Both the position numbers and the translations under genes were made by a program. A stretch of DNA of 4,369 nt, taken from IMG/VR virus record IMGVR_UViG_2585427751_000011, positions 1 to 4,369 of that record. One strand, given 5' to 3'. Below the pieces are notes generated by a model. It was not told the origin of the DNA. It saw nothing but the letters and a program-made list of their open reading frames with translations, and did no database searches. Every line of letters starts with the position of its first letter. Position 1 is the first letter of the stretch. The stretch is from a virus (taxonomy: Duplodnaviria > Heunggongvirae > Uroviricota > Caudoviricetes). Of the stretch, positions 1 to 4,369 are shown piece by piece.

Positions 1-228
1 ATCAAACTCCATTTGATATTAACTTTTGTTTATATCTTTATGTGGTTTATTTCAAAAATAACTCAATAAAAAACAAATAGATACAGAGCAAATTTAAAAA
101 TTTGAAATTAACCAGTTGATATTTACTAAGTTAATATCTAACATATCAAACATACACTAGTGAGTAACTCAATAGAGTAGCACACATGAGTAATAAAGTT
201 TGCCATAGAAAGTACACAGGGGGCCATT
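1..228. promoter_or_regulatory. AT-rich leader upstream of ner; putative early operator/promoter region of a Mu-like element
   Basis: No ORF in the six-frame track here. Strongly AT-rich compared with about 50% GC in the downstream coding DNA. Contains repeated TTGATAT/ATATCAA motifs (13-19, 116-122, 143-149) and the inverted repeat ATCAAA-n5-TTTGAT (1-17). In phage Mu the operator/Pe region lies immediately upstream of ner. Confidence 0.4.
116..144 (+). promoter_or_regulatory. Candidate sigma70-type early promoter (-35 TTGATA 116-121, 17-bp spacer, -10 TAACAT 139-144)
   Basis: Hexamers match consensus at 5/6 and 4/6 with a 17-bp spacer, oriented toward ner. An IHF-consensus match (TAAccagTTGATA, 109-121) overlaps the -35, and ACTAAGT (125-131) lies in the spacer. 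Such matches arise easily by chance in AT-rich DNA. Confidence 0.2.
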
Positions 229-474
229 GTGAGTCTTATTGAAGATTGGTCTTCCGCCGATATAAAGGCAGCCTTAGAAAAACGCGATACCAATTTGTCA
301 CGTTTATCAAGGGAAAATAATTTGCAGCCTAGGACTTTGGGTAATGCTTTGCGAGTTCCCTACCCTAAAGGTGAAAAGATAATTGCTAGGGCTATAGGTG
401 TAGAGCCACAGGTTATTTGGCCTACTAGATATGAACGACGTGCGCGGAGGAAATATGTGGGTTGCAATGACTGA
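229..474 (+). CDS. ner: Ner-like DNA-binding transcriptional regulator (Mu Ner / Nlp family)
   Basis: 81-aa ORF with a GTG start preceded by AGGGGG (218-223) at 5-nt spacing. The translation (…DWSSADIKAALEKRDTNLSRLSR…TLGNAL…YPKGEKIIARAIGVEPQVIWPTRY…) aligns by eye with Mu Ner (…DWHRADVIAGLKKRKLSLSALSR…TLANAL…WPKGEQIIANALETKPEVIWPSRY…). Position directly upstream of a MuA-like gene matches Mu gene order. Confidence 0.85.
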   Translation: MSLIEDWSSADIKAALEKRDTNLSRLSRENNLQPRTLGNALRVPYPKGEKIIARAIGVEPQVIWPTRYERRARRKYVGCND

Positions 475-2539
475 ATTGATTTCATTCAGTGACCTACCTA
501 GTTCTTTGGCAGGTCTGCACAAAAAAGCAAAGAGGGAAGCGTGGAAAACGCGGCTAAAACCAGGGGTAAAAGGGAAAGTTTTAGAGTGTGAAATAGGGGC
601 TTTGCCTTTAACTGTTCAGCAGGCAGTACGCGAACGCTATGCCCTGCAACTGATGACGCAAAAAGCCGATGAATCACCGGCTCCGGTAGTGACAAAGGCC
701 AGGCGCTCACCTGCCGTGGTTGATGCGGTGGAGGCATATCGCGGATCACCACAACTGATGCTCGAACGCCTCAATGCCCTGACTGAAAACCAGCGCCAGG
801 TGGCTGATGCACGAATCGCGATCGTCAGCGAAGTTCTGAAAGTCGCGCAACAACCTGGTTTCAGCTGTGCGAAGGCTATCCGGTTTATCGTTGACAACCT
901 GGCACGTTCGCAACTGGACGAGCGCATTGTGGCAATGGTTGAGACGGCGAACGCCAAAAAGGGAAACAGCCGTGCGTTGAGTGAAATCACGCTGAAACGC
1001 TGGATTGCAGCCTTTAACAAGGCGCAGAACGCCGCTGAACGCCTGCTTTTGCTGGCACCTGGTAAGCGCCAGGAAATAAAAGCCGAAGATATTAACTGGC
1101 TGCCCGAATTTCTGGCGCAGTATCGCCAGTCAAACGGCCGACCAATGACCGAGGCTTACGAGGATTTTGTCGCTGAATGGCAGCACCGGCACGCTGATGA
1201 GCCTTATATGCTCGATATCATGCCGTCTTACGACACCATCCGCCGCGCAATGAAGAAACTGCCGGAAGTGGTGAAACAAAAAGGCCGGGTGACCGGCAGT
1301 GAATACCGCCAGCTTGAGGGATTCACGCGCCGCGACTGGTCCAGAATGCCGGTGAATTATGTCTGGATTGGTGACGGTCACGGCATGAAGCTGAAATGCA
1401 GGCACCCGGTTCACGGGCGGCCATTTGCACCGGAAGTGACCTTTGTTATCGACGGTGGCACGCGCTTTGTGGTGGGCTGGAGCCTTGACCTGGCTGAAAA
1501 TGTTTTCGCCGTAGCCGGTGCCATACAGTACGGTATTCGTAATCACGGCAAACCGTTTCTGTATTACTCGGATAACGGTTCCGGGGAAACCGCCGACATC
1601 CTGGATAAGGAAGTTGTGGGGATCCTGCCGCGACTGGGGATTAATCACCCAACCGGGATTGCCGGTAACCCGCAGGGACGGGGCATTATCGAACGGCTTA
1701 ACCGCACGTTACCGATGCGTATAGCCCGTAAATACCGCACCTATTTCGGGAAAGGTGCAGATCGCGAGACGTTACGCAAAACCAACCGCGATTTACGCTC
1801 GGCATTTACCGCCCTGCAACAGGGCAAACGGCTGAACGCCCGGCAACAGTCAGCGATGCGTGATTTACCGTCCTGGTCTGAACTGATTGATGCCATTCGT
1901 GATGGCGTTGAGTGGTACAACAACCGGCCGCACGATGAATTACCCATGAAGCCGAACGGGAAGCATTACAGCCCGGCGGAGTTCAGAAAAAAACGCCTGG
2001 CAGAAGAGGACACGGAAATTGAATGGCTGTCCGATGTTGAGCTGCGGGATATGTTCCGGCCAATGGTGGAACGCCCTGTAAGACGCTGTGAAATACGCTG
2101 GCTGAATAATATTTACTACGCGCCCGAGCTGAGTGATGAGCATGGCCGCAAGGTGCTTATCAGCTATGACATTCATGATGCCGAACGAATTACCGTACGT
2201 CGCCCGGATGGCAGCGTGATTTGCGAGGCGGTATGGGACGGCAATAAACGCGAAGCCTTCCCGGTCAGCGCGGAATACTACAAACAGCAGCAACGCCTTA
2301 AAGGTATGCGTAAACGCGCAGAGGAAAAAATCCGTGATGCCGAGGATGAGGTTGTCAACGTGCTGGAGCACAAGCCGCAGGAGCCCTGGCTGGAAAACAT
2401 ATACCGCCCTGTGGGTAATACGGTGACCGTTCAGCAACCTGCCGTTGATGATGAGCCTGATGAAGAATACGAGCGTAATTTCCAGCGGGGATTGCAGTTG
2501 CTCGAAGCGAAATTAAAAGAAAATGACCCTCTGGCCTGA
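455..2539 (+). CDS. A: Mu-type DDE transposase (MuA homolog); ORF is open from 431 but ATG 455 is the better-supported start
   Basis: Long ORF (702 aa from 431, 694 aa from 455). N-terminus from 455 (MWVAMTELISFSDLPSSLAGLHKKAKREAW) aligns with Mu A (MELWVSPKECANLPGLPKTSAGVIYVAKKQGW). GGAGG at 446-450 precedes ATG 455. Core contains DDE-like motifs: VWIGDGHG (D codon 1373-1375), YYSDNGSG (D codon 1571-1573), GIIERLNRT (E codon 1691-1693). C-terminal IYRPVGNT…DDEPDEEYER resembles the MuA C-terminus IFRPSGNT…DDEYETERDEY. Overlaps the ner 3' end by 20 nt. Confidence 0.9.
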   Translation: MWVAMTELISFSDLPSSLAGLHKKAKREAWKTRLKPGVKGKVLECEIGALPLTVQQAVRERYALQLMTQKADESPAPVVTKARRSPAVVDAVEAYRGSPQLMLERLNALTENQRQVADARIAIVSEVLKVAQQPGFSCAKAIRFIVDNLARSQLDERIVAMVETANAKKGNSRALSEITLKRWIAAFNKAQNAAERLLLLAPGKRQEIKAEDINWLPEFLAQYRQSNGRPMTEAYEDFVAEWQHRHADEPYMLDIMPSYDTIRRAMKKLPEVVKQKGRVTGSEYRQLEGFTRRDWSRMPVNYVWIGDGHGMKLKCRHPVHGRPFAPEVTFVIDGGTRFVVGWSLDLAENVFAVAGAIQYGIRNHGKPFLYYSDNGSGETADILDKEVVGILPRLGINHPTGIAGNPQGRGIIERLNRTLPMRIARKYRTYFGKGADRETLRKTNRDLRSAFTALQQGKRLNARQQSAMRDLPSWSELIDAIRDGVEWYNNRPHDELPMKPNGKHYSPAEFRKKRLAEEDTEIEWLSDVELRDMFRPMVERPVRRCEIRWLNNIYYAPELSDEHGRKVLISYDIHDAERITVRRPDGSVICEAVWDGNKREAFPVSAEYYKQQQRLKGMRKRAEEKIRDAEDEVVNVLEHKPQEPWLENIYRPVGNTVTVQQPAVDDEPDEEYERNFQRGLQLLEAKLKENDPLA

Positions 2540-2546
2540 AATAAAA

Positions 2547-2576
2547 AAATAACCCGAGCGGCGACTCAGGTTATTT
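2547..2576 (+). terminator. Stem-loop with flanking A/T runs between A and B; possible weak intrinsic terminator or attenuator
   Basis: AAATAACC (2547-2554) pairs with GGTTATTT (2569-2576), with inner pairs 2556-2558 to 2565-2567 and a 6-nt loop. Sits 8 nt after the A stop codon and is followed by GATT. The stem is AT-rich and therefore weak. Confidence 0.25.
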
Positions 2577-2614
2577 GATTAAACAAAGGAACTACACAAA
2601 CGCGAGGTAATAAT

Positions 2615-3136
2615 ATGACCGATATAAACGATGTAATCAAGACCATTGATGAACTTATTGATGGCGGCGTGCTGACGCAGTATGCCATCGCCAGAGAGGC
2701 GGGAATTTCCGACGGCACATTATCGGCTTTCCGCAAGGGGAAATATAAAGGCGATAACGCCGCTGTGGCTGCTTCCCTGCGCTCCTGGTATGAGAACTGG
2801 AATAAACAAAGCGCACTGCCGGAACCGCCGCAGTTTGTGGAAACTCAGACAGTCCAGGAGCTGCGCGCACTGTTTCAGGCGGTTCGCCTGATGGGCTGTA
2901 TTAACGTTATTGTGGGCGTACCGGGTGTGGGTAAAACGGCCACTGCCCGTAATTACTGCCAGGAGCAACCAAACACCTGGATGATCACCCTGTCACCCGC
3001 GCACTCCAGCGTCACGGAGTGTCTGCTGGAGCTGGCCGATGCGCTGGGGATTGATTACACCCGCGCGAACAAAGGGGCATTATCTGTAAACGGTGAGCCG
3101 GGCTTACGGCCCGGCCCCTGCGGAGGGCAAATATGA
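2615..3136 (+). CDS. B: MuB-like AAA+ ATPase (target DNA activator), 3'-truncated: N-terminal HTH and Walker A only; probably non-functional
   Basis: 173-aa ORF with GAGGT (2604-2608) 6 nt before the ATG. The HTH region YAIAREAGISDGTLSAFRKGKYKGDN matches Mu B (QIALESGLSTGTISSFINDKYNGDN); PEPPQFVETQTV is nearly identical; Walker A is GVPGVGKT; WMIT…ECL.ELA matches. Similarity ends after …KGALS (about 3085) and the ORF stops at 3134-3136. Mu B is about 312 aa and continues with the Walker B region (…LVIIDEADHL…); no such continuation exists in any frame downstream. Confidence 0.8.
   Translation: MTDINDVIKTIDELIDGGVLTQYAIAREAGISDGTLSAFRKGKYKGDNAAVAASLRSWYENWNKQSALPEPPQFVETQTVQELRALFQAVRLMGCINVIVGVPGVGKTATARNYCQEQPNTWMITLSPAHSSVTECLLELADALGIDYTRANKGALSVNGEPGLRPGPCGGQI
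3097..3115 (+). other. Perfect GC-only hairpin (7-bp stem GCCGGGC/GCCCGGC, 5-nt loop TTACG) at the point where MuB homology ends
   Basis: Base pairs 3097-3103 with 3109-3115 read directly from the sequence. It lies within the last, non-homologous codons of the truncated B ORF and about 18 nt upstream of ATG 3133. Confidence 0.45.
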
Positions 3137-3486
3137 ATGAACATCACACTGTGGCAGCAACAGATGATTCAGGCCTTCAGGTCAGTGGTGACAGTCCTGT
3201 CACGGTACTGGCAGAAGTGCGTTGCAGTCGTGCGCAGTTTCGTCGTGCGGGGTTCCTGTTCATGCGGGGACGCCAGCAGGTTGACGTCACCCCGGAGCAG
3301 CTTGCCCGACTGGAAGCGGAGCCATGCCTCACTGTACGAATACTACAGACGCCTGGTGATGATGCGGGAGCCGTGGCGGGTGTGGTTCATGCAGAGACCG
3401 GTGCAGATTTAGCCGAAGCCGGACAGGATGCTCCCCGGAAAAAGACCGGCAATAACGCCAGACAGGCGAAAAAGGCTCGCGCATGA
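3133..3486 (+). CDS. Hypothetical protein (117 aa), GC-rich, basic C-terminal tail
   Basis: ATG 3133 is preceded by GGAGGG (3122-3127) at 5-nt spacing. Start overlaps the B' stop (ATGA) and the stop overlaps the next ATG (ATGA at 3483-3486). First codon positions are G-rich, as expected for real coding sequence. No family recognised. Caveat: in GC-rich DNA open frames occur by chance; the alternative ORF 3137-3412 is in the same frame as B'. Confidence 0.45.
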   Translation: MNEHHTVAATDDSGLQVSGDSPVTVLAEVRCSRAQFRRAGFLFMRGRQQVDVTPEQLARLEAEPCLTVRILQTPGDDAGAVAGVVHAETGADLAEAGQDAPRKKTGNNARQAKKARA

Positions 3487-3719
3487 ATTACGCCAACGGT
3501 TACACCGAAACGCAGGCCGACAGTGGCGCGGTGATGTATGCGCTTTATTTCTCCTGCGAGGAAATGATCGCACCGCTGACTGATATCAGCTCGCTGGATG
3601 ATTTCCTGCGCCATTACGAAACCTTCACCGAACCGGAAGGCACACCGGAATTTAAGGCGCACATCAGCCTGCCAGGTGCAACCGCCGCCGGTGAAAAAGC
3701 CGGACCGTCAGAGGAATAA
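3483..3719 (+). CDS. Hypothetical small acidic protein (78 aa)
   Basis: ATG overlaps the upstream stop (ATGA); AAAGG lies 7 nt upstream. Translation has about 14 Asp/Glu against 3 Lys/Arg. The next gene's SD (GAGGAA, 3711-3716) is embedded in its 3' end. No family recognised. Confidence 0.45.
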   Translation: MNYANGYTETQADSGAVMYALYFSCEEMIAPLTDISSLDDFLRHYETFTEPEGTPEFKAHISLPGATAAGEKAGPSEE

Positions 3720-3722
3720 CAG

Positions 3723-4010
3723 ATGACAACCATTTTTATCAAACCCGCGCCGGGATGCCTGATCCGCGATCCGGACACCATGAAACCGCTGGCGCAGGAG
3801 GGAGAGGAAAAACCCTTCACCCCGTTCTGGTGCCGCCGTCTTAATGACGGGGACGTCATTGTGGTGGAAAAAGCGGCTGAAGCAGCACCGGCAGCAGCGT
3901 CTGCAACGACTGATGCCGCCGGAAAACCCGCGGGAGCGGCAGCAGAAAAACCTGCGACTGAAAAACCCGCGACTGAAAAACCCGCAGCATCAGACAAGGG
4001 GACGTCCTGA
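3723..4010 (+). CDS. Small protein preceding the tail sheath gene (recalled as DUF2635 / Mu gp38-like); C-terminal Ala/Pro/Lys-rich tail with (EKPAT) repeats
   Basis: GAGGAA sits 8 nt before ATG 3723; the stop overlaps the sheath ATG (TGATG at 4008-4012). The N-terminal half (MTTIFIKPAPGCLIRDPDTMKPL…FWCRRLNDGDVIVVE) resembles, from memory, the short conserved ORF found just upstream of sheath genes in Mu-like tail modules. The C-terminus is low-complexity, encoded by the tandem repeat. Confidence 0.6.
   Translation: MTTIFIKPAPGCLIRDPDTMKPLAQEGEEKPFTPFWCRRLNDGDVIVVEKAAEAAPAAASATTDAAGKPAGAAAEKPATEKPATEKPAASDKGTS
3945..3989 (+). repeat. 15-bp tandem repeat, about 3 copies (GAAAAACCYGCGACT), in frame, encoding EKPAT-EKPAT-EKPAA; degenerate copy at 3921-3935
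   Basis: Units at 3945-3959, 3960-3974 and 3975-3989 read directly. Copies 1 and 2 differ at one base; copy 3 diverges in its last 4 nt. Confidence 0.8.
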
Positions 4011-4369
4011 TGATTAACTTTGATTATATCGGCGATAACAATCGCATTCCGCTGGTACAGATTGAAATCAATAATTCAATGGCCGTGACCGGCACTCCAC
4101 CACAGCGTCAGGCGGTACTGTTGTTTGGTCAGGCTGCAATGAAAGACACCACCATTCAGGGGCGCGGTCAGCTTGATGTACCAGTACGTATTACCCGAGC
4201 TTCACAAGCAAGAGAACTCTGGGGGCGAGGTTCCATGATTGCACTGATGGTAGAGGAATTTATCGCCATTAACCCTGACACAGAGTTATATGCCATTGCA
4301 CAGGGGGCTGGAACAGGTCAGTCCAGGGCATGCGTGATGAATATCATTGGAACAGCATTGGCAGACGGG
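4010..4369 (+). CDS. Phage tail sheath protein, N-terminal part (Mu gpL-like); continues beyond the window end
   Basis: ATG 4010 with AAGGGG 8 nt upstream; open to the window end (120 codons, no stop). Translation MINFDYIGDNNRIPLVQIEINNSMAVTGTPPQRQAVLLFGQ…RASQARELWGRGSMIALMVEEFIAINPDTELYAIA… fits the remembered N-terminal pattern of Mu-like sheath proteins (…FDNS.A…LL.GQ…A…FG.GS.LA.MV…N…ELW…). Confidence 0.65.
   Translation, partial: MINFDYIGDNNRIPLVQIEINNSMAVTGTPPQRQAVLLFGQAAMKDTTIQGRGQLDVPVRITRASQARELWGRGSMIALMVEEFIAINPDTELYAIAQGAGTGQSRACVMNIIGTALADG

Follow-up and report, generated by a model that had tools for sequence, protein, structure and literature searches.

Gene content of the window and structure of B'

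The window, that is, the whole stretch of 4,369 nt that was analyzed, begins in the early region of a Mu-like prophage and passes, directly after a shortened B gene (B'), into late genes that are unexpected at that position in the Mu-type gene order. Its features are listed in Table 1. The repressor gene c lies just left of the window on the minus strand, window position 1 being the base after the repressor coding sequence in L001 and L010, and a sigma-70-like site was found at 116–144 in the early regulatory region. The transposase gene A contains no stop and no frameshift. The DGHG and SDNG motifs of its product align with Mu A D269 and D336, while its IIERLN motif was matched to the third catalytic residue (Mu A E392) by inspection only, as MAFFT misplaced that residue. 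The protein is only 26% identical to Mu A; intact prophages at five other loci encode exactly the same protein. In public gene calls and in the RefSeq annotation of L001, A starts at ATG 455 (694 aa), so that its first 20 nt lie within the end of ner; a start at 431, which would give the longest A ORF (702 aa), is probably not the real one.

Table 1. Features of the window, internal deletions of the full remnant, and junctions between remnant copies and host DNA
Feature	Position	Strand	Evidence or carriers
Early regulatory region between repressor c and ner, AT-rich	window 1–228	.	GC 0.30
ner-like early regulator, 81 aa	window 229–474	+	Pfam HTH_35, E 6.7e-27
MuA-type transposase A, 694 aa, apparently intact	window 455–2539	+	Pfam Mu-transpos_C, HTH_Tnp_Mu_1
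B' ORF (half-length MuB homolog), 173 aa	window 2615–3136	+	
B' codons 1–157: N-terminal HTH-like domain and AAA+ start including Walker A (codons 101–108)	window 2615–3085	+	100% identity to intact B; 8xvb; 2mqk
Junction 1: ATTATC microhomology, B joined to 3' end of major-head gene T	window 3079–3084	.	ATTATC at both parental sites
B' alien tail: 16 codons VNGEPGLRPGPCGGQI and TGA stop	window 3086–3136	+	identical to parental T-end and spacer in L035
HI1506-related / FluMu_N protein (gp35-like late gene)	window 3133–3486	+	Pfam FluMu_N, E 3e-9; identical in intact prophages
78-aa in-frame fusion: gp36 codons 1–4 and gp37 residues 114–187	window 3483–3719	+	register comparison with parent L035
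DUF2635 (gp38-like) protein	window 3723–4010	+	Pfam DUF2635, E 9e-20
Tail sheath gene, N-terminal 120 codons, continues beyond window	window 4010–4369	+	Phage_sheath_1 in L005, L035
Internal deletion 1	L002 3174–20000		versus intact L002 prophage
Internal deletion 2	L002 20437–21159		versus intact L002 prophage
Internal deletion 3	L002 23130–28325		versus intact L002 prophage
Internal deletion 4	L002 28718–31870		versus intact L002 prophage
Left junction	K-12 locus 3673 (uidB)		L029
Left junction	K-12 locus 5431 (uidA)		L003, L023
Left junction	K-12 locus 9824		L006, L007
Left junction	K-12 locus 10189		L005, L011, L021
Left junction	K-12 locus 10261		L004, L008, L009, L010, L028, L032
Right junction	K-12 locus 10364		L003, L028
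Right junction	K-12 locus 10468		L029
Right junction	K-12 locus 10529		L004, L032
Right junction	K-12 locus 10934		L005

The first-pass annotation had described the ORF behind A as a MuB homolog cut off after Walker A at about half the normal length, and this description was borne out, as the product has 173 aa against 310 aa and contains the HTH, GVPGVGKT and PEPPQFVETQTV, the last at residues 69–80. The gene lies directly downstream of A with the same spacing as in intact relatives. Residues 1–157, ending in ...KGALS, match the N-terminal part of the 310-aa B of these relatives at 100% identity, and in comparison with more distant intact B genes the differences are all synonymous. The same annotation had called the first ~155 residues well conserved against Mu B. 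The extent was close, since exactly 157 residues are derived from B, but the identity to Mu B is only 43% (BLASTP, 155 residues, 3–157, E 6e-41), compared with 100% to the true parent. In structure searches, residues 3–156 of the Mu B cryo-EM chain 8xvb matched B' residues 4–157 (E 5e-34), and the MuB N-terminal domain structure 2mqk was matched by B' residues 3–62 (E 3.2e-7); accordingly, the N-terminal HTH-like domain of MuB-type activators is present. The Walker A P-loop (GxxGxGKT) of B' aligned with GNPGVGKT of Mu.

Everything from Walker B onward is missing, as had been claimed. Past ...KGALS157, intact B continues with RAIRRRLMGTRGLVIVDEADHL, and its Walker B (VIVDEAD, corresponding to Mu D173/E174) follows 16 residues after the breakpoint, whereas B' lacks Walker B and the rest of the AAA+ fold and its alignment with Mu B stops at S157. 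The Pfam family AAA_22 scored 22.4 bits in B' (cut-off 27) versus 66.9 bits in the parent B. In the Pfam search of B', the Phage-MuB_C domain (PF09077) was absent; it occupies residues 223–299 of the parent B (88.6 bits) and also occurs in Mu B. The 3' half of the full-length parent gene encodes VIVDEADHLGIDGLEQLR. B' therefore resembles Mu protein B (ATP-dependent target DNA activator B) in having its gene directly after A, an HTH-like N-terminal domain, the PEPPxFVETQTV linker motif, and Walker A, and differs from it in keeping 157 of about 310 residues, in lacking Walker B, the remaining AAA+ fold, and PF09077, and in ending with 16 unrelated residues.

These added residues correspond to what had been noted as the last ~8 codons of unrelated sequence; the tail is indeed alien, but it is 16 codons long. 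It translates the last bases of T, the T stop TAA (3087–3089), the T/gp35-like spacer, and the RBS of the next gene, and a GC-rich hairpin lies in the tail region at 3097–3115 (−23.6 kcal/mol, z −1.8). The TGA stop of B' (3134–3136) overlaps the ATG of the next gene (3133), and this gp35-like late gene is now transcriptionally fused behind the early operon. Public records name B' "AAA family ATPase" or "transcriptional regulator", whereas at this deletion junction only a pseudogene fragment is left.

Behind the gp35-like gene, the 78-aa fusion marks a second junction at 3494/3495, where ~0.72 kb has been deleted and the two sides overlap by 2 nt (CA). A 23-bp direct repeat suggested here by BLAST overlap was ruled out, because the exact parent shows only the 2-nt overlap and the remainder is BLAST over-extension. 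In the DUF2635 gene, TRF detected a 15-bp tandem repeat, GAAAAACCCGCGACT, in 2.7 copies at 3945–3985, which encodes PATEK repeats at the C-terminus of the protein. The copy number differs among otherwise identical elements, giving DUF2635 proteins of 90, 92, or 95 aa.

The deletion junction and the parent phage

When the window was compared by megablast with 5,426 complete E. coli genomes, approximately 250 E. coli records matched its left part at 96–98% identity, with all matches ending at 3084, and the right part mapped ~16.9 kb downstream in intact prophages. Using the exact A protein, intact prophages of ~38 kb were located at five chromosomal sites (L024, L025, L027, L031, and L033), each with a 310-aa B. 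Window positions 1–3084 were identical to these five prophages at 3084 of 3084 nt, and positions 3079–3495 and 3494–4369 were 100% identical to the late region of a parent contig (L035). Contig JBFCVG010000001.1 of GCA_052996365.1, with loci L024/L035, serves as the parent example.

In the exact parent, junction 1 corresponds to a deletion of 16,943 bp between two ATTATC hexamers. The first lies within B, in the context ...AAAGGGGCATTATCCCGCGCC..., and the second, found 16,943 bp further on in the context ...GTCGCGGATTATCTGTAAACGG..., belongs to the end of the major-head gene T. The window has one ATTATC only, with the left flank from the B copy and the right flank from the T copy. Alignment to Mu B and its relatives, the proposed means of mapping the breakpoint, placed it after S157, and the nucleotide matches to intact prophages end at nt 3084. 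Besides the B 3' half, the deletion took kil, gam, mor, the lysis genes, and all head genes. Truncation of B by a point mutation was ruled out, as the DNA after 3084 is late-gene DNA; since this DNA is not B, no single-base correction gives a long B ORF. The absence of substitutions in 3,084 nt relative to five intact prophages argues that the deletion is very recent, so that the truncation, which had been supposed to be recent, is more so than was guessed.

The reality of the junction was evaluated from its recurrence. The public collection contains the exact 173-aa B' in 62 indexed blocks, among which 24 contigs were examined, comprising NCBI E. coli isolate assemblies, ENA human-gut metagenomes, and Logan assemblies. 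The gene order was the same in nearly all 24, look-ups by the 78-aa fusion and by A gave the same architecture, and the window was 100% identical to L008, L010, L011, and L029. Junctions 1 and 2 were found in none of the 5,426 complete E. coli RefSeq genomes, the remnant occurring only in draft, metagenome, and Logan assemblies. The window ends where a contig ends (L010; JOQJ01000032.1 of GCA_000714025.1), and short-read assemblies of genomes with several Mu-like prophages can be misjoined, so that a chimeric join, or a false stop hiding a full-length B, might be suspected. However, the exact product and gene order recur in the 24 contigs, which come from unrelated isolates, gut metagenomes, and Logan, and some of the carrier contigs exceed 200 kb. 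Moreover, the overlap at the join is just 6 bp, far under any assembler k-mer. An assembly chimera was ruled out by the number and independence of the contigs and by this short overlap, and with late-gene DNA following 3084 no single-base fix restores B; an assembly or sequencing artefact is thus extremely improbable.

One contig, L012 (GCA_000700725.1 JNMZ01000005.1), is ambiguous and is a possible example of such a misjoin. It lies near nrdAB/glpQ, carries c, ner, and A of the L002 type, and covers the equivalent of window positions 617–3476. Its 78 differences from the window all precede position 2627, and the rest, starting at 2627 and running through junction 1 to the contig end, 19 nt short of junction 2, shows none. 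L012 represents either recombination of the remnant with an intact prophage or a misjoin in a genome holding both.

A selected short protein was also considered, in which B' would act as an HTH regulator or as a dominant-negative protein against the B of superinfecting Mu-like phages. B' retains an undamaged start codon, RBS, and N-terminal domain, its expression from the early operon is predicted on derepression, and the remnant is retained in many isolates. In addition, the MuB N-terminal domain mediates filament–filament contacts (work cited in PMC11292022). However, not a single nucleotide has changed since the deletion, leaving no time for selection to act or be detected, and the tail is the chance product of translation running on through a hairpin between genes. 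A P-loop half-domain would also be unlikely to fold without the rest of the AAA+ domain. Furthermore, neither the 90% cluster look-up nor the database-wide homolog search found a separate family of short B proteins with the C-terminus of B'. Apart from B', the 90% cluster consists of contig-end partials of normal B, continuing ...SRAIRRRL..., and the other short B entries are contig-end partials or different accidental fusions. Thus, a function selected for B' is very unlikely, and the two findings that were to overturn the truncation, namely a natural family of short B proteins with this tail and a sequencing error that restores the ORF, did not emerge.

It was concluded with high confidence that B' is the scar of a very recent 16.9-kb deletion in a Mu-like E. 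coli prophage that is now a defective remnant of 13 kb. According to the proposed course of events, a Mu-like phage circulating in E. coli would have inserted in malX, and illegitimate recombination between the two ATTATC copies would have removed 16.9 kb, joining B codon 157 to the last 11 nt of T. As the start of B stayed intact, translation would cross the T stop region and the spacer for 16 codons and end at the TGA. Three further short-homology deletions would then have produced the 13.1-kb remnant.

One of the accidental fusions mentioned above, P0040 from another E. coli contig, is a 178-aa protein with a start identical to B (41% of the query) that also contains the head protease domain Mu-like_Pro_N of Pfam. 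It seems to have arisen by a separate deletion that connected B with a head gene, and deletions from B to the late region may be recurrent in this phage type.

The 13.1-kb remnant in malX

The full remnant is 13.1 kb long and lies in malX, for example at 6575–19697 of L005. In comparison with the intact L002 prophage it carries four internal deletions (Table 1), each with 2–8 nt of homology at the junction. Three of them, beyond junction 1, lie in the tail region, and deletion 3 fuses the remnant's sheath to a fragment of baseplate gpP. The remnant keeps c, ner, A, B', a few late-gene fragments, an invertible segment with a Gin-like recombinase, a DUF6645/SASA gene, com/mom, and both termini, with c, ner, and A intact in full copies. 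The termini, which lie outside the window, are TGTAACCAGG... on the left and ...CGCGCTATA on the right in L003–L005, L028–L030, and L032. In contrast to these retained parts, kil, gam, mor, the lysis genes, all head genes, and most tail genes are absent.

The loss of B had been presented as the main defect of an otherwise whole element. This does not hold, as B' is the left edge of the 16.9-kb deletion, which is one of four. The modules for particle formation (early accessory, lysis, head, and tail) have been left incomplete by the four internal deletions, and the remnant is unable to form phage particles. As kil and the lysis, head, and most tail genes have been lost, derepression should no longer kill the cell and would be non-lethal. 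The intact parent prophage type is 100% identical at the nucleotide level to every retained segment of the window; it differs in being ~38 kb long, in possessing a 310-aa B together with complete early, lysis, head, and tail modules, and in occupying other chromosomal sites, whereas the remnant lacks the 16.9 kb and three further segments and lies in malX.

Neither defective Mu-like prophages nor B-defective derivatives of Mu are new, and the latter include the classical Mu X mutants, in which IS1 is inserted in the early region or B, and mini-Mu elements. The malX remnant itself is undescribed so far. On its own, the truncated B is ordinary prophage decay and matters mainly for annotation. 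The remnant as a whole, which shows four short-homology deletions and not one substitution after the event, gives a dated picture of the disarming of a transposable phage.

Several variations among copies of this phage type were also observed. A segment of ~1.3 kb with a tail-fibre assembly gene has opposite orientations in L004 (13216–14542) and L032 (15376–16702), with identical flanks. It is bounded by imperfect inverted repeats of ~130 bp and adjoins the gene of the 190-aa Gin-like recombinase, and short-read contigs often break at it; the Gin-like invertase seems to be still active in the remnant. Comparison of L029 (19040–19048) with L030 (19040–19189) revealed an extra in-frame deletion of 141 bp with a 9-bp overlap in the DUF6645/SASA gene of one copy, the protein having 637 versus 684 aa. 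An intact prophage of this phage type lies in dcyD (L002/L044, NZ_OZ547136.1; K-12 comparison locus L045). In the L002/L044 insertion, the one intact insertion checked, the duplication is 4 bp (TACA) versus the 5 bp typical of Mu. The right terminus of the phage type ends in ...GCTATA, that is, with TA versus the canonical CA of Mu.

Host flanks of the remnant and the putative activity of A

Mu B is an AAA+ ATPase that forms polymers on DNA, brings the target to the transpososome, activates A, and is the source of cis-immunity (PMC2837660, PMC7350765, PMC11292022). The interface residues of Mu B whose mutation abolishes filaments are R157, E174/D176/H177, R220..., and 301–312 (PMC11292022), and all of these filament-interface residues are absent from B'. 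As interface and catalytic elements are missing, complete loss of B function would be expected. Thus, B' should not hydrolyze ATP, polymerize on DNA, capture targets, or confer cis-immunity, and its sequence predicts the loss of ATP-dependent DNA binding, of filaments, and of the stimulation of A.

In vivo, Delta-MuB prophages transpose at ~1% (about 100-fold lower) with the whole genome still reachable, and their cis-immunity is lost, insertions starting 98 bp outside the ends (PMC7350765). The remnant represents a natural counterpart of such a laboratory Delta-MuB prophage. Like Mucts B::kan (Walker and Harshey 2020, PMC7350765), it has A and both ends together with a B that is predicted to be non-functional. 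It differs in being a natural deletion derivative that also lacks kil, lysis, and head genes, whereas the laboratory element was engineered. Moreover, the activity of the remnant is deduced from population polymorphism, whereas the transposition of Mucts B::kan was measured (PMC7350765).

The host DNA beside the termini of the remnant copies was mapped on the K-12 locus L014 (uidB to malY; malX = 9356–10948). Nine junctions were obtained, five on the left and four on the right (Table 1), most of them in at least two independent assemblies. All nine start at the exact terminal base of the element (left TGTAACC..., right ...GCTATA). The flanks are all collinear with K-12, and each left junction lies to the left of each right junction. 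By comparison, the remnant copies themselves differ by at most one SNP and one 15-bp repeat indel across the 4.4-kb window. A simple insertion with target duplication was not found in any left–right pair of remnants, and the ancestral site could therefore be placed only indirectly, presumably at 10262–10368. GGTCTG, which stands beside both ends of L004, was rejected as a target-site duplication, as both occurrences are native to K-12 and lie 267 bp apart. L028 (10261/10364) bridges the flank types of L004 and L003. Most simply, these junctions would derive from a single insertion between 10262 and 10368, after which at least eight one-sided deletions of ~0.1–6.7 kb occurred independently. Some of these deletions remove uidA, uidR, hdhA, malI, and part of malX. 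As the flank variants share the four internal deletions and are near-identical, the flank deletions would be later than the loss of B and would have arisen quickly.

The element had been expected to be immobile or to transpose poorly. In agreement with this, no new sites were occupied, all copies seen except the ambiguous contig L012 still being at the malX/uid locus. However, the host DNA at both termini differs among near-identical copies, which indicates that the ends of the remnant and its A, the activity of which is putative, still act locally. When an element transposes replicatively within its own molecule into a target close by, one-sided deletions anchored exactly at a terminus are expected, and nearby targets are usable for intramolecular transposition only when cis-immunity is absent. 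On the basis of the anchoring at the termini, we lean toward the view that the flank deletions were made by A through intramolecular transposition without B or cis-immunity. They are also what an element like Mucts B::kan would be expected to leave.

Alternatively, the differing flanks may be ordinary spontaneous deletions or may be older than the loss of B. Terminus anchoring is the single basis for the attribution to A, and short-homology deletions do occur in the element, as the four internal ones demonstrate. However, nine junctions at the exact terminal nucleotide, never inside the element or a few bases outside it, are unexpected for random deletion, and the four internal deletions are common to all variants, which by parsimony makes the flank changes later. 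Moreover, the deletions, of ~0.1–6.7 kb, fall mostly within the zone normally guarded by B-dependent cis-immunity. An origin of the flanks without transposase is accordingly possible but rather unlikely. The pentamers at the new junctions showed no clear fit to the Mu NYSRN consensus, which is a weak test given that A is only distantly related to Mu A.

If the flank deletions are indeed the work of A, occasional expression of A without B would lead to inefficient transposition without cis-immunity, and intramolecular strand transfer into DNA near the element would delete host sequence from the exact terminus. Such terminus-anchored, A-driven deletions could account for the many flanks in the uid–malXY region. 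It is thus tentatively favored that a B-less, non-lethal remnant with intact A acts as a local deletion generator in wild E. coli, with at least eight events in uidABC-uidR-hdhA-malI-malXY. The cost of losing B-dependent cis-immunity would then be visible in wild strains, and the flanks would provide population-level evidence for what this immunity guards against, amounting to a natural test of its purpose. A "dead" prophage would still be reshaping its neighborhood, including uidA, the beta-glucuronidase marker used for E. coli identification, and this would offer a mechanism for the loss of this diagnostic locus.

The uidA gene was also compared in carrier contigs that keep it whole (upstream flank of L003–L011). 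It is called there as two ORFs of 309 and 295 aa, compared with the 603-aa gene of K-12, and the alignment of the flank to K-12 contains one indel. Hence, uidA was probably frameshifted in this lineage before some copies lost it entirely.
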